Positions 1 through 13,014 of a stretch of DNA of 64,000 nucleotides are shown one piece after another. Source of the DNA: a virus (taxonomy: Duplodnaviria > Caudoviricetes); IMG/VR virus record IMGVR_UViG_3300023070_000001, positions 13,102-77,101 of that record; one strand, written 5' to 3'. The translations under genes were made by a program, and so were the position numbers. Position 1 is the stretch's first letter, and each line of letters begins with the position of its first letter. Under the pieces are notes generated by a model that was not told where the DNA came from, did no database searches, and worked only from the letters and a program-made list of their open reading frames with translations.

Positions 1-97
1 CCCGGTAGATGAATAGTCAGCCTTGACTATTAGATGCCCGCAGTTCTTACAGCTTTTCTTTCGTTTATTTATTTTATCCCAGTACTTAGCGTCAAAC

Positions 98-514
98 TTA
101 TCCATAGATATCAAACTCGTTTTCATATAGGAATGTTTCTGTAGCTATTCCAGCAGCTTTAGCTAGGTCTCTACAACTAGTAGCGCCCTTGGACTTGTTC
201 CTGATGAAAGCGAGACATATATCTGGGTTAGTATTAACCATAAGTTTATTACGTCTAAACCCTGCGCTTTTACCGAAGCTAGCCCAATTAGCATCATGCC
301 TTTCGACATTCACACGCATTACTTGAGTAGCAAAGTTATCTGCTATAGCATCTGCACCACGAGGACAGTTACCATGTACGATAGTTAACCAATCAATCGG
401 ACCTTTCTCAAGCCCTGGATGATCCTTGATCCAATCTATCACAGCTTCAACGATTCTACCAGAAACACTTTCATATAGGTCCCAGTCTCGGGAGCCTGTT
501 ATCAGTAACCTCAT
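98..514 (-). CDS. SLOG-family (DUF2493/YspA-like) protein
   Basis: LLITGSRDW, IVHGNCPRGAD and AGFRRN motifs; start moved to ATG 514 (ATGA overlap with the upstream stop). Confidence 0.8.
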   Translation of the reverse strand: MRLLITGSRDWDLYESVSGRIVEAVIDWIKDHPGLEKGPIDWLTIVHGNCPRGADAIADNFATQVMRVNVERHDANWASFGKSAGFRRNKLMVNTNPDICLAFIRNKSKGATSCRDLAKAAGIATETFLYENEFDIYG

Positions 515-738
515 GTACCACACCTTAGACATGCATACTCTACTAGATCGCCACAATCAACACATAGAGCTTTTTCGCATACAGGGCAGTTACCTTTAGC
601 ATCTAAATATCTAACTCCGCAAGGGCGCTCTTTATAAGCTCCGCATAGAGTTAGCTTAGGGCTACACAGGCAAACAATATGGCAGAATGAAACATTGTCA
701 TCTGTAATTTGTGGCTTATCTAATACTGCACCTTGCAT
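511..738 (-). CDS. Cys-rich hypothetical protein (probable Zn-binding)
   Basis: ORF with AGGTG RBS; multiple CxxC pairs. Confidence 0.6.
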   Translation of the reverse strand: MQGAVLDKPQITDDNVSFCHIVCLCSPKLTLCGAYKERPCGVRYLDAKGNCPVCEKALCVDCGDLVEYACLRCGT

Positions 739-820
739 TATAGATCACCTAATACCCATAAAATAATTAAGGTGCCCAACCCAATTACTATGAGCGAGAC
801 ACCTATACCGACAATCATAC

Positions 821-1009
821 TTAAATATCAAATTCCCCAGCTTTAACGCCTGCAATAAAAGCTTTCCACTCATCTTCAGTGAAAAGTACTTTAACATCAG
901 GAGCGAGGTTGTTTCGAACAGCAATCCAAATAGGATTAGTTTCCAAAACAGTTACCTCAACACAGGCGTTAGTACCGCAGTAGCTTGATTTTACCCAAGT
1001 TGTATTCAA
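821..1009 (-). CDS. DUF397 (BldB/AbaA-like) protein
   Basis: WVKSSYC...NACVEV...AVRN...FTEDEWKAFIAGVKAGEF matches the DUF397 pattern. Confidence 0.9.
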   Translation of the reverse strand: MNTTWVKSSYCGTNACVEVTVLETNPIWIAVRNNLAPDVKVLFTEDEWKAFIAGVKAGEFDI

Positions 1010-1099
1010 CTATGACCTCTCAATAAGCCACTTAGCAGCCAAAGTTATCAGAATAGCTACTCCGATAGCTATTGGAATCGAAATTATAAATTCCCACAT
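1010..1099 (-). CDS. 29-aa single-TM micropeptide (MWEFIISIPIAIGVAILITLAAKWLIERS)
   Basis: Hand-translated; ATG lies 1 nt after the tRNA-Glu discriminator; stop abuts the DUF397 start. Confidence 0.6.
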   Translation of the reverse strand: MWEFIISIPIAIGVAILITLAAKWLIERS

Positions 1100-1100
1100 G

Positions 1101-1174
1101 TAGAGCGAATGGGATTCGAACCCACATTTTCCAGATTGAAAGTCTGGCATCCTAAACCATTAGACGACCGCTCC
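1101..1174 (-). tRNA. tRNA-Glu(UUC)
   Basis: Cloverleaf; CCAGA-CT-TTC-AA-TCTGG anticodon arm; GGTTCGAATCC T-arm; CCA not encoded. Confidence 0.95.
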
Positions 1175-1240
1175 AGGCTGGCAAGAAAAATACTTTTATT
1201 GTTACGTCTGCCATTCGCAACCGCTAGATGTTGCGCAGAG

Positions 1241-1314
1241 TACTCCGTACGGGATTCGAACCCGTATTCTCTTCCTTGAGAGGGAAGCGAGATAAACCAT
1301 TACTCTAACGGAGC
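1241..1314 (-). tRNA. tRNA-Glu(CUC)
   Basis: Cloverleaf; CTTCC-CT-CTC-AA-GGAAG. Confidence 0.95.
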
Positions 1315-1318
1315 ATGT

Positions 1319-1362
1319 TGTAAGCGACTCTGTTTCCAGCTTTCGGGTGTCCGTCGCTTACA
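1319..1362 (-). ncRNA. Promoter-proximal stem-closed leader RNA L1
   Basis: TGTAAGCGAC...GTCGCTTACA closing stem with internal CTG-GAAA-CAG hairpin; ends 4 nt before tRNA-Glu(CUC). Confidence 0.6.
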
Positions 1363-1368
1363 AGTACT

Positions 1369-1397
1369 ACCTTACCTTAAAACTTTACCCCTGTCAA
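1369..1397 (-). promoter_or_regulatory. SigA/HrdB-type promoter P1
   Basis: TTGACA-N17-TAAGGT. Confidence 0.85.
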
Positions 1398-1399
1398 GC

Positions 1400-1888
1400 T
1401 CAGTAATCTGAAGAACTTGAACTAGATCCTGAATCTGAACTGCTTGAGCTAGATGATCCGCTATCTGAACTGTAGCTTGAAGAGTTACCTGAATCAGATG
1501 ATCCACTAGAGTAGTTAGATCCTGAATCAGAGCTGCTTGAAGAAGGTGCCTCATATGAGCTACTACGATCAGGCTCAGAGTAACCTGAATCAGAACCCCA
1601 GTAACCAAAGTCAGCAGGCTCAGATACGGCTACATAATCATCTGAGGGGGAGTCATCATACTTCTTACGAGGCTTCTCTACAACAGGCTTAGTACGGGTT
1701 ACAGGCTTGCGAGGCTCAGTAACGATATTACGGGAGGTATAAGCACTACCGGTATAGGTGTGAGGCTGTGAATACACAGATGCCTGCACCTTGTTAGGCT
1801 TACGACTCTTAGACTTAACTACCTTGTATACTACAAAGGCAATAATAGCAAGAGCTAGGATTACTAGAAGAAACTTCATGATTCTCAC
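1400..1888 (-). CDS. Membrane-anchored protein with Ser-rich low-complexity tail
   Basis: N-terminal hydrophobic helix followed by Lys residues; SSSSDSGS repeats at the C-terminus. Confidence 0.75.
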   Translation of the reverse strand: MRIMKFLLVILALAIIAFVVYKVVKSKSRKPNKVQASVYSQPHTYTGSAYTSRNIVTEPRKPVTRTKPVVEKPRKKYDDSPSDDYVAVSEPADFGYWGSDSGYSEPDRSSSYEAPSSSSSDSGSNYSSGSSDSGNSSSYSSDSGSSSSSSSDSGSSSSSSDY

Positions 1889-1920
1889 ATTCCGTGAAGG
1901 TTGTCTTACTTACTGACATT

Positions 1921-1949
1921 ATCCTAGCAGACTTGCTCTAGCGATGCAA
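1921..1949 (-). promoter_or_regulatory. SigA-type promoter
   Basis: TTGCAT-N17-TAGGAT with extended TG. Confidence 0.6.
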
Positions 1950-2270
1950 GCCTAGAGTTTCACGCTTCATCTCTTCAGTCATAATGCATTTAAGATCCTT
2001 GAATACCCAATTAGGTACCTTAACTCCATAGCAGACATCACCATCATAGTTAAGTGCCTCTACCCTGACCTTAATATGACCTTCAAGTAGGCCATCAGAA
2101 TCCTTGAAGGCGTGAAGAGCATAAAGCTTAGCCATCACAGTAGGAATCTCATCATAGTAGACTCTATACCATGAGCCTCTATTCTGCCAGATAGTACCTA
2201 AGCCATAAAAGTCAGTAAAGAATGCCAGCACTAAAGCAATTAGGGCTGTAATCCAAATCCAATCAGGCAC
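1938..2270 (-). CDS. Hypothetical membrane protein
   Basis: N-terminal TM (WIWITALIALVLAFF); GTG start overlapping the Nudix stop chosen. Confidence 0.65.
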   Translation of the reverse strand: MPDWIWITALIALVLAFFTDFYGLGTIWQNRGSWYRVYYDEIPTVMAKLYALHAFKDSDGLLEGHIKVRVEALNYDGDVCYGVKVPNWVFKDLKCIMTEEMKRETLGLHR

Positions 2271-2694
2271 AGTCGTAGAACCTACTTCCACCTGATGCTG
2301 CATTAAGAATGCGCTCTACAGTTGCAAAAATAGGCTTAGGTAGATTATAGATTGAATGCCACTTCCAGCTCTCTACCTTATCGGGCTCCATAACTTCAGG
2401 AACACCACCATCATAATAAGCTACCATACCAATATCGATATAGTGCTTGGGATAGTACTCGATGAGGTTGATTACTGAAACAACATGAAGACCACTGTAC
2501 TTTACACTAGAGCCAAGTTCCTCTTCAAGCTCACGCTCAGCACAAGCCTGGAAACTTTCATTAAATTCAAGGTGTCCCCCAGGAAGAGCCCACTGGCCTT
2601 CACCATGAGATCCCTTACGCTTACCCAGAAGAATACGATCCTCTCGGTCGATAAGTGCTACACCTACGCCAACCTTAGTAATGTTATCTGTCAT
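2263..2694 (-). CDS. Nudix hydrolase (MutT/NUDT15-like)
   Basis: Nudix box GGHLEFNESFQACAERELEEELG. Confidence 0.92.
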   Translation of the reverse strand: MTDNITKVGVGVALIDREDRILLGKRKGSHGEGQWALPGGHLEFNESFQACAERELEEELGSSVKYSGLHVVSVINLIEYYPKHYIDIGMVAYYDGGVPEVMEPDKVESWKWHSIYNLPKPIFATVERILNAASGGSRFYDCA

Positions 2695-2700
2695 GCTCTC

Positions 2701-2729
2701 ATCCTAGTAGAGTCACACAAGTCTGTCAA
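2701..2729 (-). promoter_or_regulatory. SigA-type promoter, leaderless Nudix mRNA
   Basis: TTGACA-N17-TAGGAT-N6-ATG. Confidence 0.85.
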
Positions 2730-2734
2730 GTAGA

Positions 2735-2760
2735 AAACCCACACCATCTGGTGTGGGTTT
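2735..2760. terminator. Intrinsic terminator hairpin
   Basis: AAACCCACACCA/TGGTGTGGGTTT 12-bp inverted repeat. Confidence 0.75.
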
Positions 2761-2765
2761 ATCAA

Positions 2766-2930
2766 TTATCCTTCGAACTTATATTTCTTGAAGGGTGAAT
2801 TTGAAGGCAACTTATCAAAAGCCTTGCGGGCCTTTTTTCTGTTATCTGTAGATGGCATACGAGCTGATGCCTCTGCTGCCCTTACAAATTCTTTCTCTTC
2901 TTTAGTTGTAGGCTCATGATCTGTTGGCAT
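2766..2930 (-). CDS. 54-aa basic microprotein (MPTDHEPTTKEEKEF...)
   Basis: Hand-translated; AGGAG RBS. Confidence 0.65.
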   Translation of the reverse strand: MPTDHEPTTKEEKEFVRAAEASARMPSTDNRKKARKAFDKLPSNSPFKKYKFEG

Positions 2931-2952
2931 TTAATTCTCCTAGAGTAATGGG

Positions 2953-3027
2953 TACCTGTAGTGGGACTCGAACCCACACTGAACGGATTTTAAGTCCGCA
3001 TCCTCTAACCGATTGGGATACACAGGC
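2953..3027 (-). tRNA. tRNA-Leu(UAA), short variable loop
   Basis: GCGGA-CT-TAA-AA-TCCGT; 5-nt variable region. Confidence 0.92.
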
Positions 3028-3058
3028 TTGATTGGCACTGTGTTAGCGCCAACGTTTA

Positions 3059-3214
3059 TCATAAAGTGAAATCGATGTGCCTTGTTTTACATTTGCAACT
3101 AGTGCAACCATTTTTGTCATGCTGACTACGCCCGTGGCCACAAGGCGGTGGACAGATTTTCTCTTTACGAGGGTAATCTAGTCTACCTTTGTCAGGCTTT
3201 TTAGGCTTAGTCAT
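3059..3214 (-). CDS. 51-aa Cys/His microprotein (CPPPCGHGRSQH...CTSCKC)
   Basis: Hand-translated; TAATG coupling with the upstream ORF. Confidence 0.65.
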   Translation of the reverse strand: MTKPKKPDKGRLDYPRKEKICPPPCGHGRSQHDKNGCTSCKCKTRHIDFTL

Positions 3215-3387
3215 TAGCTCTTGCCGCCTCTTAGATAATTTTCATACGCTGCAATAGCATTTTTTAAATTATCTCTAAGCTTCTTAGGGACAGGAACTCC
3301 ACGTTCCTTCTCTTCTTCTTTTGCTCTCATTAAAGCATCATTTGCTTTAACTACACTACGAGAATAAGCTTTTAACTTATCATCCAT
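3214..3387 (-). CDS. 57-aa helical microprotein, paralog of 3387-3536
   Basis: Hand-translated MDDKLKAYSRSVVKANDALMRAKEE...; TAATG coupling on both sides. Confidence 0.65.
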   Translation of the reverse strand: MDDKLKAYSRSVVKANDALMRAKEEEKERGVPVPKKLRDNLKNAIAAYENYLRGGKS

Positions 3388-3536
3388 TACGATTCATATT
3401 CCTTAATGGCATCTCTAAGTTCTTTAAGTACACTATCAGGTACTTGTTTCCCTTTCAGCCTTTTTTCTTTCCTAGCTTTTGCTACAGCAGCATCAGCGTC
3501 TTGCACTCTTTTCAGAGTATTAGCATTTTTGGGCAA
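3387..3536 (-). CDS. 49-aa helical microprotein
   Basis: TTG start after GAAAGA; MPKNANTLKRVQDADAAVAKARKE...AIKEYES. Confidence 0.6.
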   Translation of the reverse strand: MPKNANTLKRVQDADAAVAKARKEKRLKGKQVPDSVLKELRDAIKEYES

Positions 3537-3565
3537 AATAATTCTTTCTATTTTCAAAAATGATA

Positions 3566-3644
3566 TGGTTGAGGAACCGACGATCAGGCGTCAGACTTCT
3601 GTCCCGTAAGGGCAGTGTTCTGTCTACTCTTAAACTATTCCCCA
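3566..3644 (-). tRNA. Atypical tRNA-Val(UAC)-like gene lacking a canonical T-loop
   Basis: 7-bp acceptor TGGGGAA/TTCCTCA, A73, encoded CCA, anticodon loop CT-TAC-GG; T-arm loop GCCTGATC instead of TTCGA. Confidence 0.6.
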
Positions 3645-3646
3645 AG

Positions 3647-3721
3647 TACCGATGAAAGGATTCGAACCTTCAACATCCTGATTCTAAGTCAGGCACCTCT
3701 AGCCATTTGGGTCACATCGGC
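3647..3721 (-). tRNA. tRNA-Leu(UAG), short variable loop
   Basis: CCTGA-CT-TAG-AA-TCAGG. Confidence 0.92.
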
Positions 3722-3749
3722 ATAGCCCCGAAGGGCTTACTATTAATAA

Positions 3750-3947
3750 TTAAACTTCTTCTCTATCAACTTCGATAGTTACGTTAAGAACCTTGCCCTC
3801 ACGTACCCAAACTGGCTGCTCTCCCTGTCCACCAGCAGTGAACTTAAGGGTAGTATCGCCATCCTTAGCAGTGATTGCGCTCTGCCAATGGCCCTCATCA
3901 GCAGGCTTTGGCTTTACAGTAGCTACTGTAACATCTCGCATGAACAT
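3750..3947 (-). CDS. Hypothetical protein
   Basis: ORF track; plausible small beta protein. Confidence 0.6.
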   Translation of the reverse strand: MFMRDVTVATVKPKPADEGHWQSAITAKDGDTTLKFTAGGQGEQPVWVREGKVLNVTIEVDREEV

Positions 3948-3999
3948 TGTCTAGCTCCCATCGATATACCTGAATACGAACATCTAGTATATCGGCTGA

Positions 4000-4167
4000 C
4001 TAGCCATTCTTGTTGATAGCAGCAAGGACAGCTTTAGCATCTTGAAGTTCTTTCCTCAGAGCCTTTAGCTTCTTTGCATCTTTAGTAGTTAGCTTTTCAA
4101 CAGCGATCTTATTCATAATACGTTCAATAACACGTTCGGCATCAGTTCTAGTTGTAATCTTAGCCAA
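4000..4167 (-). CDS. 55-aa basic coiled-coil microprotein
   Basis: Start moved to TTG 4167 after AGGAG; the longer ORF overlaps a tRNA. Confidence 0.65.
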   Translation of the reverse strand: MAKITTRTDAERVIERIMNKIAVEKLTTKDAKKLKALRKELQDAKAVLAAINKNG

Positions 4168-4227
4168 TTGAATTACTCCTATGTCAGTTAAATACAGGGG
4201 TATGAGATGCGACCTCATACCCCTAAG

Positions 4228-4308
4228 TGCTCGTAACAGGAGTCGAACCTGCATACCTCTCGGCGTCACGTTCTAAGCGTGATGTGTATTCCGTTCCACC
4301 ATACGAGC
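4228..4308 (-). tRNA. tRNA-Leu(UAG), long variable arm
   Basis: TCACG-CT-TAG-AA-CGTGA; GCC-GAGA-GGT variable hairpin. Confidence 0.95.
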
Positions 4309-4315
4309 ATGAAAC

Positions 4316-4909
4316 CTATTTAAAATGATTCCTTACCTCTGCTACCTGAGTATTAAGATTTGCTACGGTAACAGTTAATTCTGATAGCTTAGCTACCGCC
4401 TTGTTCAACTCTACCAGACTAGCGGCCACCTTAGCAACCTCAGTAGATAACTTACTGATAGCTAAAAGATCCTCATCTACATAAGGCCAAGGGTGCTGTA
4501 CACCTAGTCTAGCATCTGGTAGGTACTGCTCGTAAGGGGCAACACCACTTGCGTTTTTGGTGAATACAGACCAAGAAGTGAAGGTACGCCCTGCACCCTT
4601 GAAGATTTCATATGCTGCGGCAGTATTTACTACAGGATCTCTCCATCTACCACCAGCAGCCTGAATCTTAGGATATTGCCAACGCCCTGAGAGCTGAAAG
4701 ATTCCATGATCTCTCTGCCCAATACTAGCAGGATCACTAGTAATAGGTGCAGTAGTACGAGAAATGGATTCTGTGTCTGCACTAGATTCGGCAAAAGCTA
4801 CCGCCACAGCAACAACAGCCTCGGTATCTGTTGTACCGGGTACAATTGTAGTTTTACTGAAGCCAGCCTTAATAACAAGGTCAGCAATTTCATGTGGTGA
4901 TAGCTTCAT
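4316..4909 (-). CDS. Lysozyme-like/lytic transglycosylase protein with C-terminal coiled coil
   Basis: AVAFAESS catalytic Glu, DHGIFQL and NTAAAYEI...WSVF motifs. Confidence 0.8.
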   Translation of the reverse strand: MKLSPHEIADLVIKAGFSKTTIVPGTTDTEAVVAVAVAFAESSADTESISRTTAPITSDPASIGQRDHGIFQLSGRWQYPKIQAAGGRWRDPVVNTAAAYEIFKGAGRTFTSWSVFTKNASGVAPYEQYLPDARLGVQHPWPYVDEDLLAISKLSTEVAKVAASLVELNKAVAKLSELTVTVANLNTQVAEVRNHFK

Positions 4910-4931
4910 AATTAGTCCTTAATTCAGAGAG

Positions 4932-5004
4932 CACCGGTTGCAAGAATCGAACTCGCACAGACGCGGGTTTGGAAGCCGCCGCACTACCATTATACTAAAC
5001 CGGC
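4932..5004 (-). tRNA. tRNA-Trp(CCA)
   Basis: Loop TT-CCA-AA, G73; C31.C39 mismatch. Confidence 0.85.
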
Positions 5005-5258
5005 ATTAATTCGGAGATTCAATAAGGAGGGTTGCGATCCCTCATATCATACTTACTTGCACTCCTAGGTTTGGTCAAGCCGCGCAAAGGACTTACGCTA
5101 GTCTCATCTGAACCCTAACAGATGACTCTGTCAAAATCAACAGACACCAAGTGTTCCAGGGGAAGCTCATGCTTCTCGTATACCCGCTCGCCTCGACGAG
5201 ACCCCTTGGATTACTATGATTCTAGTAGCTTGCATCAGAGGCTATCTAAAATCTTACG

Positions 5259-5330
5259 TGGCGGATACCTGAGTCGAACAGGTGATTTCAAGCTCATGAC
5301 GCTTGCGAGATACCACTTCTCCAATCCGCT
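5259..5330 (-). tRNA. tRNA-Met(CAU) with 1:72 mismatch
   Basis: CAAGC-GT-CAT-GA-GCTTG; A1.C72 unpaired. Confidence 0.85.
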
Positions 5331-5332
5331 AG

Positions 5333-5403
5333 TACCGAGTGATGGTAACGATCCATCTTCTATGCCTTATGAGAGCATCGTTCTACCTTTAAACTAACCC
5401 GGC
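5333..5403 (-). tRNA. tRNA-Met/Ile2(CAU) with atypical T-loop
   Basis: ATGCT-CT-CAT-AA-GGCAT; T-arm GATGG-ATCGTTA-CCATC. Confidence 0.8.
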
Positions 5404-5414
5404 CTGCTCCTACC

Positions 5415-5443
5415 AGCTTAGCAGAGCAGTTAAACCTTGTCAA
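5415..5443 (-). promoter_or_regulatory. SigA-type promoter for the CAU tRNA pair
   Basis: TTGACA-N17-TAAGCT. Confidence 0.85.
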
Positions 5444-5593
5444 CTACTTTGCCTTGTAGAATCCGCTGTTAGGATCTGAAATATGAGATTTATGAATCCA
5501 CTTACCACTTGCAATTCTTACAAGTTTATTAAGTGGTGTGGGTTTATGTCCACATGCTGCACAGTTAGCAGGTGCCTTCTTATCCGTCTTCAT
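5444..5593 (-). CDS. 49-aa Zn-binding microprotein (CAACGH...HKSH)
   Basis: Hand-translated; ATGA overlap with the upstream ORF. Confidence 0.6.
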   Translation of the reverse strand: MKTDKKAPANCAACGHKPTPLNKLVRIASGKWIHKSHISDPNSGFYKAK

Positions 5594-5787
5594 ACCAGCA
5601 AGTCTACAACAGGCTTATTGGTTGAGTCAAGCTTAGGCATTCCACCATACTGATCAGGATCAACGCCTGTCATTAATGCTATAGCAGATTCACTACTCCC
5701 GTCAAGGCGCTCAAGATGAACTTGTACCATGGAGTAGTAAGGTCCACAATAATCAGATAGACTCTCGCTTGAGTCGCTTTCTATCAT
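5590..5787 (-). CDS. Hypothetical protein (start uncertain)
   Basis: ORF track. Confidence 0.45.
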   Translation of the reverse strand: MIESDSSESLSDYCGPYYSMVQVHLERLDGSSESAIALMTGVDPDQYGGMPKLDSTNKPVVDLLV

Positions 5788-5902
5788 ACTTCTTCCTATT
5801 CTTATGCTTAGAAGATGCGTTAGAGCGGCGAAGTTCTAGGAGCTGACGTAGTTCCTCAGCATCCATCTTGCGCTTATAAGTTTGCATGTCAGCTCCCTTC
5901 AT
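5753..5902 (-). CDS. 49-aa basic microprotein (LRRSNASSKHKNRKKYDRK)
   Basis: Hand-translated; leaderless ATG 6 nt after the -10; alternative ATG at 5887 with SD. Confidence 0.7.
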   Translation of the reverse strand: MKGADMQTYKRKMDAEELRQLLELRRSNASSKHKNRKKYDRKRLKRESI

Positions 5903-5908
5903 GACTTC

Positions 5909-5937
5909 AATCTATCAGAGTAGGTCTGAGGTGTCAA
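5909..5937 (-). promoter_or_regulatory. SigA-type promoter (leaderless)
   Basis: TTGACA-N17-TAGATT-N6-ATG. Confidence 0.85.
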
Positions 5938-6122
5938 GCGTCGTAGTAATTATCGTTTCTAATATTTACATCGACTACAGAAATCAACTCTTGAGCACGA
6001 ACCTTAAAGCCCTCTAGCTCTGATCTCTTATACAGGCTGGCATTTTCAGTAATGTCTTTAATAACAAAGATTAGCTCGCTCATTAATTGAGCTACATAAG
6101 GTGTTGTGGATTCACTCATCAT
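5934..6122 (-). CDS. Hypothetical protein
   Basis: ORF track; coupled to neighbours. Confidence 0.6.
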   Translation of the reverse strand: MMSESTTPYVAQLMSELIFVIKDITENASLYKRSELEGFKVRAQELISVVDVNIRNDNYYDA

Positions 6123-6324
6123 CCTGCCATTCTACTACGGTCTTACCGCCATGACCGTGAATAATAATTACATCAGCAATACTTTTATAGAAACAGACAG
6201 AACTGGTAGATGTCATCCACCTCATAGCGCAGGAACCATCAGTAAACTGAACACCTTCAGTTACTATACCTACTCCTGAGATTCCTGTCTCATCATCTAA
6301 TCTACGGAGGTTGAATCTACGCAA
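6112..6324 (-). CDS. Small phage hypothetical protein (R.D.TG.SG.G...EGV.F.DG)
   Basis: RBS GAGGA; pattern recalled from widespread small phage proteins. Confidence 0.7.
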   Translation of the reverse strand: MRRFNLRRLDDETGISGVGIVTEGVQFTDGSCAMRWMTSTSSVCFYKSIADVIIIHGHGGKTVVEWQDDE

Positions 6325-6449
6325 GGTTCCTCTTCTTTCTTAGTATATTTATTAAACAGTTCTTGAAGCTCTTCATAAAGTTTCTGAACTTTATCCTTAT
6401 CTTCATCAGATAAGTTATCCCAATCTAGTACACCATCATCATTAGGCAT
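6297..6449 (-). CDS. 50-aa acidic microprotein (MPNDDGVLDWDNLSDEDK...)
   Basis: Hand-translated; fills the gap between two ORFs. Confidence 0.5.
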   Translation of the reverse strand: MPNDDGVLDWDNLSDEDKDKVQKLYEELQELFNKYTKKEEEPCVDSTSVD

Positions 6450-6717
6450 TTCTTGCCCTCATAACTACAATAAGCCATTCATCAGGATTATCCTGCTGTA
6501 GAAATACTAATTCCTCTACTGACAGATCCCTGGCTTCGAAATCATAATTAGCAGCTTCAGCCATACGCATAACCATCTCAGTACAATCTGATGTAATAAC
6601 TGCTTTAACTACTGCTACATCATCACTGAGGCAAGCCCAGATTTCACCACAAGCAAATCCCCTTGCAAATTCTGGGTCCTCAGAGTCAAATACCAAGAGG
6701 AATTCCTCAGAATCCAT
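6442..6717 (-). CDS. Hypothetical protein
   Basis: Start moved to ATG 6717. Confidence 0.6.
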   Translation of the reverse strand: MDSEEFLLVFDSEDPEFARGFACGEIWACLSDDVAVVKAVITSDCTEMVMRMAEAANYDFEARDLSVEELVFLQQDNPDEWLIVVMRARNA

Positions 6718-6736
6718 ACTCTTTTTGATTCCTCTA

Positions 6737-7063
6737 TTATCCTTGGATCTCATTAGATTCCGCCAATCTAATACCGTAATCTTGATATTTCTTAACAACC
6801 ATCCAGTGCATCTTATGCGTTACGCCTTCAGAAATCTCTGAGACCTTAATAAGTTCTACCAGCTCTGTAAGAAACATCGGATAGCATAAGCCAGTATCCA
6901 CATCTTTAAACCTGACTGCACTAGGCGCTAACCAACCATCCAATTTTAGCTTAGCGAGGAATGGAGTATTAGCTCTCCACTCTTCAGGTACTGCCCAGCG
7001 ATGAACAGACTTCATCAAATCGCCAGCTTCATTGTAAGGAACTTTGAAATTACCCTTTGGCAT
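6737..7063 (-). CDS. Hypothetical protein
   Basis: Start moved to ATG 7063 after AGAGG. Confidence 0.6.
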   Translation of the reverse strand: MPKGNFKVPYNEAGDLMKSVHRWAVPEEWRANTPFLAKLKLDGWLAPSAVRFKDVDTGLCYPMFLTELVELIKVSEISEGVTHKMHWMVVKKYQDYGIRLAESNEIQG

Positions 7064-7064
7064 T

Positions 7065-8003
7065 CTACTTAACCTCTTGGTGACATAGTGGGCATTGCCC
7101 TGCATTAGTTAATAGTTTGTGTAGTTCGGTTTCGATATCTGATATGGCATGATCTAGAGTATTTATTTGATCGACTAACTCTTGAATCTTCTTTGTAGCT
7201 AGGATAGCAGACTTTAGGGCAGCTTTAAAGCCTCTGAGTTGATCCTGCACCTCTACTAGCTCAGACATACTAGGAGGCTCTGGAATTATTCTAACCTTGC
7301 TGAGGGCATCTGAGGCTTGTTGTGCCCTATCTACAGAGCTAGCTAGGTTGAGTTGCCAAGCATTGATATCTGAAAGTTCCTCCCAGATATCCTCTACCTC
7401 AGTCATCGTGCTAGCCTGAGCTTTAATATCTGTATATTCAACAATCTGCTTCATTACTGCTTCCTGGTCCTTCTTACGCAGGTTCAGTAATGTAGATGCT
7501 GCCTTTGCTTTCTTACTAGCTTTACTAACTGCTGCAAAGATAGTAGAGACATTTGTCAATTCCCCTAGAATCCTTGCAGCATTGCTAGATGTCTCAGTCA
7601 ATAGATAAGGTGCATCATGTTGACTAGCGAAACTTATCGACTTTACTTCTTTTGTGCTCGGCGGGATACCAAGAACTTCTGTAACTTGGGAAGGTACTTG
7701 ACGATTAAGCTTAGTAAAGCTGGATTCTTTGCTACCAATCTCAGTAATCTTGTAAACACTAGATCCTCCTACGCTTCTTTCAATAGTTACTGTAGCATTA
7801 TCTGTGGTAACCGCTACAGATGCATGTTTAGTTCCTTGCATTATATTATCGGAGTTCAATGAATTACTAGCGATGGCCTCGATAGCTCTGATTAAAGCTG
7901 ACTTTCCACTACTAGATGCACCGACAATTACAGTAAACTTTCCCAGTTCAATTTCTACATCTTGTAGACTCTGGAAATTCTTACATGATATAGAGTGAAT
8001 CAC
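7065..8003 (-). CDS. SbcC/Rad50-like ATPase N-terminal half (Walker A, coiled coil, terminal zinc hook)
   Basis: NFQSL, IVGASSSGKSALIRA, coiled coil, CPLC at the C-terminus. Confidence 0.85.
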   Translation of the reverse strand: MIHSISCKNFQSLQDVEIELGKFTVIVGASSSGKSALIRAIEAIASNSLNSDNIMQGTKHASVAVTTDNATVTIERSVGGSSVYKITEIGSKESSFTKLNRQVPSQVTEVLGIPPSTKEVKSISFASQHDAPYLLTETSSNAARILGELTNVSTIFAAVSKASKKAKAASTLLNLRKKDQEAVMKQIVEYTDIKAQASTMTEVEDIWEELSDINAWQLNLASSVDRAQQASDALSKVRIIPEPPSMSELVEVQDQLRGFKAALKSAILATKKIQELVDQINTLDHAISDIETELHKLLTNAGQCPLCHQEVK

Positions 8004-8020
8004 TAATCCTCCATACGCTA

Positions 8021-8054
8021 AGAGCCACCGAACCCTGTTCAGGCTGGTGGCTCT
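8021..8054 (-). terminator. Hairpin/terminator
   Basis: AGAGCCACC/GGTGGCTCT inverted repeat. Confidence 0.6.
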
Positions 8055-8063
8055 AGTATAGCA

Positions 8064-8246
8064 TCATTTTGCTATGATGTAACCCTTGCCCTCGCAAGGT
8101 CCACAATCTACAGCAACAAATTTATCAGAAGACTTAATAAACTTAACGTCTTTAAGTTTAGCCCTTGGAACTAAAATCTTTCCATCTTTACATGCTAAGC
8201 ACGTAACTCTGGAACCCTTTAAGGGTTTAGGATACTTACTACTCAT
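8064..8246 (-). CDS. DnaJ-type Zn-finger microprotein
   Basis: CLACKDG...CGPCEGKG. Confidence 0.7.
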   Translation of the reverse strand: MSSKYPKPLKGSRVTCLACKDGKILVPRAKLKDVKFIKSSDKFVAVDCGPCEGKGYIIAK

Positions 8247-8254
8247 TTAATTCC

Positions 8255-8551
8255 TCAGACTACGAAGTATCGTTTACCCTTACAGCCCTTGCAAGTATCT
8301 TTAACTGCAAGTTCACCTGTCTTCTTGTTAGCAGGTCTGACAAGAACAATACCCTTACCTTTACAGCCAGCACAAGTGATTTTATCACCCTTTTTAACTG
8401 TAGGGTATTTATCTTTCTTAACTCGCTGAACTGCATTTGCAGTGTTTACGCCAGGACGCTTGACCCTAGCAATAATATCATAGCAATCCTTACATCGTAG
8501 ATTATCTTGCGCATCTACAAACATGTTAAGGCCGTGCTTTTTACACTCCAT
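8255..8551 (-). CDS. Two-module Zn-finger protein (CxxH...CxxC plus DnaJ-type)
   Basis: CKKHG...CKDC; CAGCKGKG...CKGCKGK. Confidence 0.7.
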   Translation of the reverse strand: MECKKHGLNMFVDAQDNLRCKDCYDIIARVKRPGVNTANAVQRVKKDKYPTVKKGDKITCAGCKGKGIVLVRPANKKTGELAVKDTCKGCKGKRYFVV

Positions 8552-8669
8552 TATTTTTAGGTTTTCCCTTAATATGATTTGGAGTTAGGGCTCTACCACA
8601 GTGATAACATCGAGTAATACCCTTAGTAATAATTATTCTTTCGCCATGTTGTTCACATTTTTTAGGCAC
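8541..8669 (-). CDS. 42-aa Zn-finger microprotein (CEQHG...CYHC)
   Basis: GTG 1 nt after the tRNA-Arg(UCU) discriminator; similar to the N-terminus of the next gene. Confidence 0.6.
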   Translation of the reverse strand: MPKKCEQHGERIIITKGITRCYHCGRALTPNHIKGKPKNNGV

Positions 8670-8670
8670 G

Positions 8671-8743
8671 TGCCCCAGGAGGGATTCGAACCCCCAACCT
8701 GACGGGTAGAAACCGCCTGCTCTATCCATTGAGCTACTGAGGC
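8671..8743 (-). tRNA. tRNA-Arg(UCU)
   Basis: GGCGG-TT-TCT-AC-CCGTC. Confidence 0.93.
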
Positions 8744-8891
8744 ATTAGTTAACAGGGTGCCAGCCCTGCTTTTACCATTACGGTCCCCAAGGTCTCCCGA
8801 CCCTGAATAACGAATGCTGGCACATAAGTTTTTGGCCAACCGTACTTGCTAGTTCCATACATACGGGAAGTATACTAGCACCCCACCTGCG

Positions 8892-8967
8892 TGATCCATG
8901 TAGGATTTGAACCTACGCACTTCGGATTAAAAGTCCGCTGCTCTATACCAGACTGAGCTAATGGATC
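8892..8967 (-). tRNA. tRNA-Lys(UUU)
   Basis: GCGGA-CT-TTT-AA-TCCGA. Confidence 0.95.
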
Positions 8968-9038
8968 ATTAAATGAAATTGTTGGGAAAGGCTATGCCCT
9001 TTATTCCAAGGGGATGTCTATGCCCATACAATTTCAAG

Positions 9039-9113
9039 TGGTTCATCTCGGATTCGAACCGAGGATCTTCGGATTAAGAGGCCGCTGCTTTAGCCAGGCT
9101 AAGCTAATGAACC
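9039..9113 (-). tRNA. tRNA-Lys(CUU), mismatched anticodon stem
   Basis: GCGGC-CT-CTT-AA-TCCGA (C31.U39, G27.A43). Confidence 0.9.
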
Positions 9114-9181
9114 ATACATGATTTATCCATCACCAACTTAGGGTGGCACCCGCTTTATAATGGATTCGTTCACAGACGAGG

Positions 9182-9258
9182 TGGTGGATCGAGTGGGATT
9201 CGAACCCACGACCAATGGATTAAGAGTCCACTGCTCTATACCGCTGAGCTACCGATCC
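9182..9258 (-). tRNA. tRNA-Lys(CUU), CCA encoded
   Basis: GTGGA-CT-CTT-AA-TCCAT. Confidence 0.96.
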
Positions 9259-9274
9259 ATAATTGCCTTTCAAG

Positions 9275-9345
9275 TACCCGGTGACAGAATCGAACTGCCG
9301 TCTGCACGGTGTAAACGTGCGGCCCTCCCATTAGACGAACCGGGC
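9275..9345 (-). tRNA. tRNA-Val(UAC)
   Basis: GCACG-TT-TAC-AC-CGTGC; A73. Confidence 0.9.
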
Positions 9346-9346
9346 T

Positions 9347-9709
9347 TGGTGCCGTGGAAATTTTCAGATCAGCAAGAGCTTAAGTTAACTGACCCTATAT
9401 TCTAGACCGCATTATCGTTACCCACAGCTATAACAATCTAGAAGCTTAGCATAAATCGTAACACGGACTCCCACCGTTAGTCTAGCACACTTTCCCAGAT
9501 CCAAGATTTATGTATGTTAGAGTACATCTAGCACATTAGCATTTAATTAGCGCCCACATGGACAAGTAACTTACTGTGTACTCTAAATCTGTAAGAGTAA
9601 AGTGAAAGGAATTGAACCTTTCCAGCGGGTGCCCCCAATTTGGCTTAGCCTTAGTACCATACCTAAGCAGGAATCGAACCTGTTACTGCCATTTACTTCA
9701 CTCTTTACG
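9347..9709 (-). ncRNA. ~360-nt structured non-coding insert between tRNA-Ala and tRNA-Val (tRNA-like modules)
   Basis: No minus-strand ORF of note; two TTC(G/A)ATT T-arm hairpins, several long stems, 3' CCACGGC-A-CCA. Confidence 0.55.
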
Positions 9710-9782
9710 TGGAACCGGACGGATTCGAACCGTCATCCTCCTGATTGCAAAACAGGCGCTCTACCGTTGGAGCTACGATCCC
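9710..9782 (-). tRNA. tRNA-Ala(UGC)
   Basis: G3.U70; loop TT-TGC-AA; U31.U39. Confidence 0.95.
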
Positions 9783-9786
9783 ATAA

Positions 9787-9844
9787 TGTAAGTGGGCCGT
9801 CACCGCCAGGTGTCTGAGCTATGTACTCAGGAACATCACTTACA
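9787..9844 (-). ncRNA. Promoter-proximal stem-closed leader RNA L2
   Basis: TGTAAGTG...CACTTACA; internal CTGAG/CTCAG and CACC/GGTG hairpins; ends 4 nt before tRNA-Ala. Confidence 0.6.
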
Positions 9845-9850
9845 TCTACT

Positions 9851-9879
9851 ACCTTACACCATGTCTTACAGGCTGTCAA
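9851..9879 (-). promoter_or_regulatory. SigA-type promoter P2
   Basis: TTGACA-N17-TAAGGT. Confidence 0.85.
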
Positions 9880-9887
9880 GTACTTAT

Positions 9888-10097
9888 TTAGTCCTCGTCA
9901 GCCATGTTGTCATCCCAGCACTTACTGTCAACACCCGTAATCAGAAGTTCACGAGTATCAGCGGATAGCCCAGGAAAGGCAACCTGCACAAACTCACCTG
10001 ATTTCCACTTGTTAAAGCCATCCTCAGGTAGGTCGATCTTCTTCGACTTACCACAGAACATACACTTCTTAGTGGTGTAGCTTACTGTCTTGGTCAT
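9888..10097 (-). CDS. Hypothetical Zn-binding protein (leaderless)
   Basis: CMFCG; ATG 6 nt after the -10. Confidence 0.7.
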   Translation of the reverse strand: MTKTVSYTTKKCMFCGKSKKIDLPEDGFNKWKSGEFVQVAFPGLSADTRELLITGVDSKCWDDNMADED

Positions 10098-10103
10098 GTA
10101 AGT

Positions 10104-10132
10104 AGCTTATCCTACTCTGTCAGATTCGTCAA
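10104..10132 (-). promoter_or_regulatory. SigA-type promoter (leaderless)
   Basis: TTGACG-N17-TAAGCT-N6-ATG. Confidence 0.8.
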
Positions 10133-10135
10133 GTA

Positions 10136-10255
10136 CTACAGGAGAGTACAGAAACCATCTTTACTCTTGTGACCAGGGCAACCTTGTGCCTTGCATCGAT
10201 ACTTGCCCTTGCGGTGTGCTCCACCCTTGGGCTCTTCCCTCTTATCTTTTGCCAT
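10136..10255 (-). CDS. 39-aa Cys/His microprotein (CKAQGCPGH...FC)
   Basis: Hand-translated. Confidence 0.5.
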   Translation of the reverse strand: MAKDKREEPKGGAHRKGKYRCKAQGCPGHKSKDGFCTLL

Positions 10256-10264
10256 GAGATGAGC

Positions 10265-10888
10265 TTACTCTACTGTGGAGCCTTCGTCAACGGGGTAGAC
10301 ATCATAAATCTTGAAGTTCTCATGAACCTTGCTAGCGGTAGGGCCGCTCTGGTTTTGGTAGTGCGAGCCAGCAAATCTAGATCCATAAAGAATAGTAGAT
10401 GGCTGAGGTAGCTTGAAAAAGCATAACTGAGCAATCTTCATTCCAGGATACAATAGGATTGGTGTAGTACCGTTATTAGATAATTCTAGTGTAACAGTTC
10501 CCTCAAACCCTGGATCGATAAAGCCAGCAGTCGAGTGAATTTGTAAACCTAATCTACCTAAACTTGACTTACCTTCACACCTTGCAGTTATATTAGCTCC
10601 TAAAGCAATAGCCTCATGAGTTGAAGCGAGAATAAAGCTATCAGGCTTTATCTCAATAGCTGAACCCTTGGGTACGGTAACAGCTTGGAAATGATTAGAG
10701 CTATCTACTTTAGGATCTATTACATCATTGAAGGCTAGGTAATCAGGGTGAGTACGCCTCTGTACTAAAAATTCGCAGCTCAGAGTTACATCATAACTAG
10801 ATGGCTGCATTAATTCAGGATGGAAGGGCTCTATGACAATATTGTCAAATCGCTTCTCTTCTAAGATATCTCTATTAGATAATAGCAC
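10265..10888 (-). CDS. dcd: dCTP deaminase
   Basis: QPSSYDVTL, EGKSSLGRLGLQIHSTAGFIDPGFEG, TLELSN. Confidence 0.95.
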   Translation of the reverse strand: MLLSNRDILEEKRFDNIVIEPFHPELMQPSSYDVTLSCEFLVQRRTHPDYLAFNDVIDPKVDSSNHFQAVTVPKGSAIEIKPDSFILASTHEAIALGANITARCEGKSSLGRLGLQIHSTAGFIDPGFEGTVTLELSNNGTTPILLYPGMKIAQLCFFKLPQPSTILYGSRFAGSHYQNQSGPTASKVHENFKIYDVYPVDEGSTVE

Positions 10889-10979
10889 TCATGTCTCCCC
10901 ATGAAAATAGAGACCTCATCGACAGGCACCATAAAAGGTCTCGGCTAAATACAGCACCCTAGAGCTTGGTCTCTATTTT

Positions 10980-11354
10980 CTATTTAGTATGGCCTGCTTG
11001 AATCATAAGTGTAGCAATATCTTGACCATCTGGCAAGGTTACTGACGCTAATGTTCTTCCCATAGTAAATCCATACGACACAAGAGAAACAATTGTCCCT
11101 TGAGGAATTATTGCTTTCAAGTATGAAGTAGCTAATTTAGAGCGGGCCTTATCCTTAGTCTCAGGAGCGTCATACCACCCGCCATCAGGTAATGTAATTC
11201 TGATAGAGCAGTGACCTGGCTCACCTTCATCTATAGGATAGATCCTAACACCCCAGCCTAAATCTAAATATTCCATAGTGAATGTATCACCATCATGAAC
11301 AGATTTTACTGGACCTACAGCTACACGGACTCGTGTCTTGCGTATTTCTGACAT
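10980..11354 (-). CDS. SNase/thermonuclease-like nuclease
   Basis: VHDGDTF, DAPET, GRTLA motifs; start moved to ATG 11354 after GGGAG. Confidence 0.8.
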   Translation of the reverse strand: MSEIRKTRVRVAVGPVKSVHDGDTFTMEYLDLGWGVRIYPIDEGEPGHCSIRITLPDGGWYDAPETKDKARSKLATSYLKAIIPQGTIVSLVSYGFTMGRTLASVTLPDGQDIATLMIQAGHTK

Positions 11355-11494
11355 AAAAATACTCCCATCTATGTGATAGGAGTATCGGTTAAATATAGTA
11401 GGCAGTCCTGAGAGCATAGCACTCTACCAATCGGGTTTCCTCTACACTTCTGTAAGGGCTTCAGACTTTTCTCTAGTGCTAGACCTACTATAAG

Positions 11495-11574
11495 AGCCCA
11501 TAAGCGGAATCGAACCGCAGACAATTAGACTCGTTTTGCAGACGAGCAGCAGCCACCAGCTACTTTTTATAGGC
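11495..11574 (-). tRNA. tRNA-Cys(GCA), atypical (A8, expanded variable loop)
   Basis: CTCGT-CT-GCA-AA-ACGAG; U73. Confidence 0.85.
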
Positions 11575-11705
11575 ATTAAAATAAGGCTCCCCCGCTAACG
11601 GCTGAGCGACGGAAACTTTCAAGGCATTAGCTTATCCGAATTCAGCATATCCTTGACCGCTAGGTTCCCTTATTTAAGATTTACCCTTATCTTGTAATCA
11701 TAAAG

Positions 11706-11780
11706 AGCCGTCAGTGTGGCTCGAACACACTACTCATCGCATACCAAGCGAGGGCTTTAACCTGATTAAGCTACGACGGC
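11706..11780 (-). tRNA. tRNA-Thr(GGU)
   Basis: Loop TT-GGT-AT; acceptor GCCGTCG/TGACGGC; U73. Confidence 0.9.
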
Positions 11781-11973
11781 AAAACCTAAGGATATCTATT
11801 TGTGTATTTGATATCAATCTGTTAAATAAAACCTACAGAATAACTTAGGTAGTTGTTGCAAAGATTATGGTCTCTGTCCTTAGCAGCTTTGTCAGAGACT
11901 TGCTGGGGATCGCTATAGCATACATAAGCCCTTCCCCTCCAGCGACATTATCCGGTCTGCATAATCTATTGCG

Positions 11974-12044
11974 AGCGGATAGCCGGGTTCGAACCGGCGA
12001 GAAATGATTGGAAATCACTTATGTTACCACTACATCATATCCGC
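11974..12044 (-). tRNA. tRNA-Gly(UCC)
   Basis: AGTGA-TT-TCC-AA-TCATT; U73. Confidence 0.93.
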
Positions 12045-12116
12045 ATAAACGGTTTTTCAGCGGCGTACTAGACGTGGTGGGACTTGCTCCGCTGAGCTGC
12101 AACCGAAAATCTCCCG

Positions 12117-12187
12117 AGCGACATAGGGGAATCGAACCCCTGTATACTGCATGGCAAGCAGTCGCACTACCATTGTGCTAATATCGC
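12117..12187 (-). tRNA. tRNA-Gly(GCC)
   Basis: ACTGC-TT-GCC-AT-GCAGT; U73. Confidence 0.95.
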
Positions 12188-12192
12188 ATCTT

Positions 12193-12378
12193 TCAATCTA
12201 GCAAAGTGCTAGAGCTTAAAAACATCCAAGCTTTAAATTCATTGCTTGTCATATTGTCTTCATCATGACGACGCTTCAATTCTAAAGCTGAGATACCCAT
12301 TCTGTCAAGCATATCTTTTACCAGAGAATCCCACTCGTCTTGAGTTAACTCAACTACATTAATAGGTTCATTACTCAT
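12193..12378 (-). CDS. Hypothetical protein
   Basis: ORF track; ATGA coupling. Confidence 0.65.
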   Translation of the reverse strand: MSNEPINVVELTQDEWDSLVKDMLDRMGISALELKRRHDEDNMTSNEFKAWMFLSSSTLLD

Positions 12379-12509
12379 ACTGTCCCCATATTTACCTTGC
12401 CTTTATTACACTTAGCATGGCACTTAAGTTCTTTCCATTTTCCAGGTTTTATTTCTTTTTGAATCACACCATAACCTTTACAGGTCTGGCACATTATCCA
12501 CTTGGCCAT
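12375..12509 (-). CDS. 44-aa DnaJ-type Zn-finger microprotein (CQTCKGYG...CHAKCNKG)
   Basis: ATG 1 nt after the tRNA-Asp discriminator; the longer ORF-track start overlaps the tRNA. Confidence 0.65.
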   Translation of the reverse strand: MAKWIMCQTCKGYGVIQKEIKPGKWKELKCHAKCNKGKVNMGTV

Positions 12510-12510
12510 G

Positions 12511-12583
12511 CGCTCCCGAGGGGAAGTCGAACCCCCACCTGTTGATTGACAATCAACTATGCTAACCTTTACACCACGAAAGC
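12511..12583 (-). tRNA. tRNA-Asp(GUC)
   Basis: GTTGA-TT-GTC-AA-TCAAC; G73. Confidence 0.95.
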
Positions 12584-12687
12584 TTGACTGGACCGATAGC
12601 TCTTCAGCATGTTTTGATTCTGCTAGATTGGAGCCTAGCATACTCTCCACAAATATAACACCTGCTCGGTCCTACACAGGCTTAATG

Positions 12688-12760
12688 TATCCACAAAGGG
12701 ATTTGAACCCCCGACCTCTTCGTTCGTAGCGAAGCGCTCTATCCACTGAGCTATGCGGAC
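12688..12760 (-). tRNA. tRNA-Arg(ACG)
   Basis: CTTCG-CT-ACG-AA-CGAAG. Confidence 0.95.
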
Positions 12761-12764
12761 TTGA

Positions 12765-12830
12765 TGTAAGCGATCCGGTAGTCTGCTCATTCGCGGCTTT
12801 CCGTCTTAAGGGCTTCTAACCTCGCTTACA
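12765..12830 (-). ncRNA. Promoter-proximal stem-closed leader RNA L3
   Basis: TGTAAGCGA...TCGCTTACA; ends 4 nt before tRNA-Arg(ACG). Confidence 0.6.
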
Positions 12831-12836
12831 AGTACT

Positions 12837-12865
12837 ACCTTACCTCATCGGTAAGTCTTTGTCAA
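12837..12865 (-). promoter_or_regulatory. SigA-type promoter P3
   Basis: TTGACA-N17-TAAGGT. Confidence 0.85.
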
Positions 12866-12871
12866 GTGGCT

Positions 12872-12977
12872 TATTAGCGAGATCGAGTAACCCCTGCCAC
12901 TATATGCAGAATACGGGTCCTCAGCGCACCTCGTTCCTCACAAGGTCGCCACACCTTGCTTCACTACCTCGCTAACA
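12872..12977 (-). ncRNA. Promoter-proximal stem-closed RNA L4
   Basis: TGTTAGCGAG...CTCGCTAATA; internal CAAGGT/ACCTTG and CTGC/GCAG hairpins. Confidence 0.6.
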
Positions 12978-12983
12978 AATACT

Positions 12984-13012
12984 ACCTTACATCAACTCTA
13001 GCAGAGTGTCAA
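12984..13012 (-). promoter_or_regulatory. SigA-type promoter P4
   Basis: TTGACA-N17-TAAGGT. Confidence 0.85.
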
Positions 13013-13014
13013 GC

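Follow-up and report, generated by a model that had tools for sequence, protein, structure and literature searches.

Can the 3' end of a transfer RNA (tRNA) gene in a bacterial virus also set the 5' end of a messenger RNA (mRNA)? The question is raised by a 64,000-nucleotide (nt) stretch of DNA, hereafter the window, that covers bases 13102-77101 of a 77.1-kb IMG/VR virus contig (about 57% complete) and in which three short open reading frames (ORFs) on the minus strand begin directly at the ends of a tRNA-Glu, a tRNA-Arg and a tRNA-Asp gene. An earlier note on this DNA had proposed that tRNA 3' processing creates leaderless mRNAs at these places. The proposal is supported in part: start codons accumulate at one single base after the tRNAs, the pattern is replicated in relatives and does not depend on which gene follows, the junctions have neither Shine-Dalgarno cores at normal spacing nor -10 boxes in place for a transcription start there, and promoter-like motifs lie upstream of the tRNA runs. 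What does not stand are the details of the cut site and the enzyme. We put the probability that the mRNAs of these ORFs are released by tRNA processing and are leaderless at roughly 60%, on support from sequence comparison that is strong but indirect.

The geometry that the note had described, in which each of the three tRNAs ends in a discriminator (N73) and a C followed directly by ATG or GTG, is borne out by ARAGORN and Rfam, with the three Rfam matches ending at the discriminators (1101, 8671 and 12511). All three tRNAs are canonical, with seven of seven acceptor pairs and Rfam scores well above the threshold of 29 bits. The note had read the C as a one-base leader, which is wrong: it is tRNA position 74, it is conserved in 26 of the 26 tRNAs of the whole contig (only one of which encodes a full CCA), and it is part of the tRNA gene. 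The start codons therefore occupy the first base past the conserved end of the tRNA gene, that is, positions 75-77 in tRNA numbering. As also noted earlier, each ORF adjoins or overlaps the gene that follows it; downstream of ORF1 and ORF2 lie further genes, and the ORF3 unit is closed by a tRNA. The parts of the three units are as follows.

1240-1314 (-): tRNA-Glu(CUC), the first tRNA of the unit leading to ORF1 (ARAGORN, Rfam)
1100-1174 (-): tRNA-Glu(UUC), discriminator A at 1101, C74 at 1100 (ARAGORN; Rfam 63.5 bits)
1010-1099 (-): ORF1, 29 codons, hydrophobic single-helix peptide; ATG at 1099-1097; its TAG adjoins the TTG of the next gene
821-1009 (-): DUF397 gene with a TTG start (Pfam PF04149, E 1.4e-14); its GAGAGG Shine-Dalgarno sequence lies within the end of ORF1
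8670-8743 (-): tRNA-Arg(UCU), discriminator A at 8671, C74 at 8670 (Rfam 66.5 bits)
8541-8669 (-): ORF2, 42 codons, zinc-ribbon-like (C5, H8, C21, C24); GTG at 8669-8667
8255-8551 (-): Cys-rich protein of 98 amino acids, with an 11-nt overlap with the end of ORF2; 95% identity in the relative G001
12687-12760 (-): tRNA-Arg(ACG), the first tRNA of the unit leading to ORF3 (ARAGORN, Rfam)
12510-12583 (-): tRNA-Asp, discriminator G at 12511, C74 at 12510 (Rfam 55.5 bits)
12375-12509 (-): ORF3, 44 codons, CxxCxGxG...CxxC zinc-finger mini-protein; ATG at 12509-12507
12193-12378 (-): gene of 61 amino acids, with an ATGA overlap with ORF3; its stop lies 5 nt before tRNA-Gly(GCC)
12116-12187 (-): tRNA-Gly(GCC), the 3' bound of the ORF3 unit (ARAGORN, Rfam)

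We counted ATG and GTG codons at position 75 that open at least 29 codons, and profiled offsets from -10 to +120 in the same way, across the contig, which reaches 13 kb beyond the window. Exactly at position 75, 5 of the 26 contig tRNAs have such a start, where the per-position background on the coding strand (0.0112, or 1.1%) predicts 0.29 (binomial P 1e-5); at any of the 130 other offsets there are at most two cases. The position-75 pattern on this contig is not chance. All five of the firm cases start with ATG or GTG, and the two that were found outside the window have no Pfam match.

L046:1115-1441 (-), same contig beyond the window: flush gene of 109 codons after tRNA-Ser(UGA)
L046:11459-11665 (-), same contig beyond the window: flush gene of 69 codons after a tRNA-Pro

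The excess recurs in three relatives that were fetched through the dCTP deaminase gene inside the tRNA region, two of them (L052 and L053) with 64-65% identity to the deaminase of the window and one (L082) more distant. ATG or GTG stands at position 75 in 6 of 16, 4 of 21 and 2 of 7 of their tRNAs, respectively, which gives 12 of 44 when pooled (P 4.5e-14), with no more than three cases at other offsets. Given that the hypothesis was framed on the first contig and tested on these three, this is a real replication.

TTG codons at position 75 were viewed separately. Outside the window, the TTG at position 75 of a tRNA-His on this contig begins a frame of 28 codons with CxxC...CxxxC (L046:11070-11156, minus strand), which may be a sixth flush gene. 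The TTG codons at position 75 after tRNA-Leu(UAG), tRNA-Lys(CUU) and tRNA-Val of the window were rejected as chance or doubtful, as their frames are short or enter the next tRNA.

How would ribosomes find these starts? That none of the three has a properly spaced Shine-Dalgarno (SD) sequence, as noted earlier, is confirmed by the lack of any SD core at -18 to -5. Such a core is found in 0 of 6 flush ORFs as opposed to 43 of 74 long ORFs, with a background of 14-19%. Other genes past tRNAs keep a distance of no less than 20 nt and carry clear SDs, as in the following two.

2766-2930 (-): gene 20 nt past tRNA-Leu(UAA), with a normal AGGAG SD
4316-4909 (-): gene of 197 amino acids, 21 nt past tRNA-Trp, with an AAGGA SD

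The alternative that survives best is SD-independent internal initiation on unprocessed or partly processed polycistronic RNA, in which the flush position would reflect genome compaction only and ribosomes would load either on an A-rich, unstructured start or on the G-rich 3' strand of the acceptor as a short-spaced SD. Many actinobacterial genes with leaders have no SD, and the start regions of the flush ORFs are indeed A-rich, with a mean A content of 0.48 at +4 to +18, compared with 0.34 in long ORFs and 0.29 on the coding strand. In addition, GGGAG (-8 to -4) and GGGG (-7 to -4) stand 3 nt before the Asp and Arg starts, respectively. However, most of 19 junctions have no G-rich run upstream, and the 12 bases before the start are held in base pairs of the acceptor and T helices. 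Compaction, moreover, predicts a spread of short distances together with overlaps into the tRNA, whereas what is seen is a single-base spike at position 75, with none at positions 73-74 or 76-77 and SD-led starts from about +20. Hence, we consider internal initiation unlikely, although it deserves more weight than the other alternatives discussed below.

The genes behind the tRNAs can be followed in relatives. In L052 the start of the DUF397 gene is found at position 75 of tRNA-Glu(CUC), and in the metagenome contig L128 it is a GTG at position 75 of tRNA-Glu(UUC). In the window and in the metagenome relative L127, ORF1 occupies position 75 of tRNA-Glu(UUC) and the DUF397 gene comes next, with TTG and the GAGAGG SD; L128 is without ORF1, and there the DUF397 gene has moved up to position 75. 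Likewise, the window gene at 1938-2303 overlaps the end of an upstream ORF (2263-2694), and its homologue in L053 starts at position 75 of tRNA-Leu(UAA). Position 75 of tRNA-Asp is taken by the zinc-finger ORF in the window and G001 (G000/G001) and by an unrelated basic ORF in L052 and L053. In these comparisons, the junction is conserved whichever gene follows. The 61-amino-acid gene behind ORF3 is itself missing in G001 and in a variant from run X8 (L040:1920-2056; joint 12189 to 12377), where in either case a single base separates the ORF3 stop from tRNA-Gly. L082 has a 29-codon hydrophobic ORF similar to ORF1 flush after tRNA-Lys. A search for relatives through the 61-amino-acid gene found none, and the exact 3' half of tRNA-Glu(UUC) had no match in viral contigs.

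That the three proteins are plausible, as the earlier note had it, is best supported for two of them. Between the contig (G000) and G001, the differences at codon positions 1, 2 and 3 number 5, 0 and 13 in ORF2 and 5, 3 and 14 in ORF3, and by this comparison both ORFs are under purifying, coding selection and are therefore translated somehow. The start of ORF2 changes from GTG to ATG in place in G001, and no other canonical start lies ahead of the first Cys of its C-x2-H...C-x2-C motif. In ORF3, codons 2 and 3 differ from G001 by silent changes, which makes the first ATG a better candidate for the start than the ATG at codon 6. The junction, reading frame and length of ORF1 are unchanged in L127, where three of its residues are replaced conservatively and two further changes are silent; this is weak evidence, and among the three ORFs the case for a gene is weakest here.

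The note had also described paralogs nearby, and the likeness of ORF2 and ORF3 to the 98-amino-acid protein holds at the level of motifs and not beyond it (BLASTP E 0.05 and 0.005); we do not regard the three as paralogs. Pfam searches with the small ORFs gave sub-threshold zinc-ribbon or DnaJ-like matches only. ORF3 matches BSD2_CRD only (E 0.03), a motif-level likeness that falls short of membership in the DnaJ-type CXXCXGXG family, and the 98-amino-acid protein scores 23.1 bits against PF00684 (DnaJ CXXCXGXG; E 9e-5), below the cut-off of 32.7. No homologues of ORF2 or ORF3 were found in cultured phages by tblastn.

These findings also bear on the idea that the junction is a by-product of the gain of tRNA-plus-ORF cassettes (e.g. 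by recombination at tRNA 3' ends), or that some of the ORFs are not expressed, so that the position would have no role in expression. The gene behind a given tRNA does vary, ORF1 and the 61-amino-acid gene are present in some relatives only, and the coding evidence for ORF1 is weak. On the other hand, in at least 17 independent junctions the codon at this one base is always ATG or GTG rather than an arbitrary triplet. Purifying selection acts on ORF2 and ORF3, the start of ORF2 changes from GTG to ATG in place, and without ORF1 it is the following gene that takes position 75. We regard the by-product idea as improbable. Alternatively, promoters inside the tRNA genes would initiate transcription at the first base of the start codon (A or G) and give primary leaderless transcripts, which is how leaderless mRNAs usually arise in Streptomyces and mycobacteria (PMC4633059, PMC4681348). 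This is the least credible explanation here and very improbable, given that a TANNNT -10 hexamer ending 7-9 nt before the start codon, in place for transcription to start at that codon, is found at 0 of 19 junctions, that the relevant region is constrained tRNA sequence and that a generic sigma-70 scan was no richer than shuffled sequence (29 hits versus 25, and as such uninformative).

Where, then, would transcription begin? The motif TTGACA-N17-TAAGGTAGTA has four copies on the minus strand of the window, as opposed to 0 in 100 shuffles, and all four precede tRNA runs whose last member adjoins ORF1, ORF2 or ORF3. The motif is common to the relatives G001, L052 and L053; a search for it with a fixed spacer gave no match. 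The four copies are the following.

1365-1397 (-): promoter-like motif upstream of the two tRNA-Glu genes
9847-9879 (-): promoter-like motif upstream of the run Ala, Val, Lys (three genes) and Arg(UCU) that ends at ORF2
12833-12865 (-): promoter-like motif upstream of tRNA-Arg(ACG) and tRNA-Asp
12980-13012 (-): promoter-like motif, second copy, directly past the ORF of 751 codons at 13015-15270

Because the motifs lie upstream of the tRNA runs and no -10 box is in place at the junctions, co-transcription of the tRNAs and the ORFs is plausible. As a separate observation, a leader with pairing ends (CTTGTAAGCG...CGCTTACA) follows the motif at 1320-1360 and 12765-12830 and reaches to within a few bases of the first tRNA.

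The host matters for what happens to such transcripts. The window has a G+C content of 43% and long ORFs nearly all on the minus strand, and the DNA runs that hold the phage sequence come from leaf litter and soil; in four DNA runs compared with the window, only population variants were seen, including the form without the 61-amino-acid gene. The portal protein has 51% identity with that of Microbacterium phage Magritte (133 kb), with weaker matches mostly to phages of Gordonia, Mycobacterium, Streptomyces and Arthrobacter, and one tRNA-Glu of the window has 86-88% identity with tRNAs of Streptomyces phages, e.g. Faust. On account of the DUF397 gene, the Magritte-like portal and the Streptomyces-phage-like tRNA-Glu, we take the source to be a large phage, rich in tRNAs, that infects an actinobacterium. 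The window has 21 tRNAs according to ARAGORN, every one on the minus strand, and 18 of the 20 within positions 1-13500 are also reported by Rfam RF00005 (46-72 bits, threshold 29). C74 is present in 14 of 14 tRNAs of G001, 28 of 29 of Faust and 26 of 26 of Magritte, which almost never encode a full CCA. The CCA-less tRNA genes in the published table for S. coelicolor also keep C74.

In S. coelicolor, the 5' ends of cleavage products have been mapped (Romero et al. 2014, PMC4681348). There, 53 of 65 tRNA genes have no encoded CCA, and where CCA is encoded, the cut falls between its two Cs in most tRNAs (PMC4681348). In the sequence contexts of Table S4 we counted a cut directly after C74 in about 39 of the 44 listed tRNAs, whether CCA is encoded or not (PMC4681348). 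In P. acnes, an encoded CCA is cut ‘always between the Cs’, and there is no obvious tRNase Z (Lin et al. 2013, PMC3848588). The earlier note had RNase Z cut after the discriminator and release an RNA beginning C-AUG. The S. coelicolor map instead places the cut after C74, which would give an RNA with AUG or GUG exactly at its 5' end, and an enzyme other than RNase Z may make it. This host group translates leaderless mRNAs well, and 264 of them are described in S. coelicolor (PMC4681348).

Release of leaderless mRNAs by tRNA processing would then proceed as follows. The TTGACA-N17-TAAGGT motifs would act as sigma-70-like promoters and drive transcripts in which one or more tRNAs come first and protein genes follow. 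RNase P would cut the 5' end of each tRNA, a host endonuclease would cut each 3' end after C74, and the CCA-adding enzyme would then complete the tRNA. Wherever ATG or GTG occupies positions 75-77, the downstream RNA would be left with its start codon as a 5'-monophosphate end, and actinobacterial ribosomes would translate such leaderless mRNAs without an SD. The tRNA arrays of this actinophage would in this way double as mRNA-processing signals. Co-transcription, cleavage on phage RNAs and translation of the product are steps that we infer. It is about an even bet that this amounts to a dedicated mode of expression in large tRNA-rich actinophages, in which a C74-specific host endonuclease excises the tRNAs and the same cut releases the leaderless 5'-monophosphate mRNAs of small proteins (zinc ribbons, membrane peptides and DUF397), so that their output would be tied to tRNA maturation and independent of SDs.

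Several points weigh against release by tRNA processing. The coding evidence for ORF1 is weak, and the promoter-like motifs are consensus matches only. With the acceptor stem open, the G-runs upstream of the Asp and Arg starts could serve as SDs at very short spacing. Magritte, the closest cultured relative by portal, is without such junctions: its tRNAs keep C74, and its sole ATG at position 75 runs into the next tRNA. No RNA run is among the public runs listed as holding the phage sequence. To our knowledge, translation of 5'-monophosphate leaderless mRNAs has not been demonstrated in actinobacteria. Finally, the cut after C74 is extrapolated to phage RNAs from the S. coelicolor map and from the CCA cut in P. 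acnes, and the mapping papers detected the downstream fragments, with stability and translation outside their scope (PMC4681348, PMC3848588).

The nearest known parallel is the tRNA punctuation of animal mitochondrial transcripts, reportedly described by Ojala, Montoya and Attardi in 1981. As in mitochondria, the phage coding sequences adjoin tRNAs with no 5' untranslated region, and tRNA excision would set the mRNA ends. In G001, ORF3 is bounded by tRNA-Asp on its 5' side (0 nt) and by tRNA-Gly 1 nt after its stop. Unlike in mitochondria, the setting is a bacterial phage; only some four in ten tRNAs with a gene behind them have it flush, other genes keep their SDs, and the phage cut would fall after C74 rather than after the discriminator.

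The flush ORFs also resemble the primary leaderless mRNAs of actinobacteria (Shell et al. 2015, PMC4633059; PMC4681348), which have no SD and ATG or GTG at the 5' end, here the would-be end. Primary leaderless mRNAs, however, carry a triphosphate and begin at a transcription start, whereas the phage junctions have a -10 box in 0 of 19 cases; with none in place, the phage 5' end would be a monophosphate left by RNA cleavage. With the tRNA genes of S. coelicolor, the phage tRNAs share N73-C74 without a full CCA, and the cut mapped in S. coelicolor (PMC4681348) falls exactly where the phage start codons begin. The two mapping papers (PMC4681348, PMC3848588) cover tRNA maturation only and do not link the downstream fragment to translation or to phages.

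The arrangement also exists in a cultured phage, Streptomyces phage Faust (NC_070783), where gp140 follows Leu(GAG)-A-C and gp163 follows Ser(UGA)-G-C, in both cases with ATG directly next. The Faust record annotates the flush coding sequences without comment, and we found no experiment on the arrangement in the literature, nor any description of such flush tRNA-gene arrangements in phages or bacteria. A third Faust gene, gp156 (L049:17719-17926), has its ATG 2 nt past C74 of tRNA-Arg(UCU) (A-C-TT-ATG) and encodes an unrelated basic product of 43 amino acids. Both tRNA punctuation and leaderless translation are known already; the proposed reading combines them in actinobacterial phages.

If the reading of leaderless mRNAs released by tRNA processing is true, bacterial viruses make such mRNAs by RNA processing and not by transcription initiation, a route so far known from mitochondria. 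It would be a phage and bacterial counterpart of mitochondrial tRNA punctuation, and as a dedicated mode of expression it would be the first such system outside organelles. The as yet unexplained actinobacterial cut after C74 would gain a function, and its nuclease a genetic handle. It would also explain why ORFs are interleaved with tRNA arrays, in which the tRNAs would be expression signals besides being decoders. A direct question follows, namely whether 5'-monophosphate leaderless RNAs are translated in actinobacteria. For annotation, gene callers that demand an SD or bar contact with a tRNA will miss or mis-start small genes of this kind.

Three minor features of the tRNA region are recorded here in their own right. 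In G001, ARAGORN reports a tRNA-like element whose ‘anticodon’ has two bases and which lies 3 nt upstream of tRNA-Arg(UCU) (L047:16125-16194); for this element the counterpart region of the window (8744-8890) has no matching ARAGORN call. Two tRNA-Met genes lie one base apart at 5258-5403 of the window, and likewise in G001. Lastly, a strong hairpin (GGGGTATGAG...CTCATACCCC) at 4190-4226 on the minus strand of the window starts 3 nt past C74 of tRNA-Leu(UAG) (4227-4308), and an SD-led TTG gene lies downstream of it.

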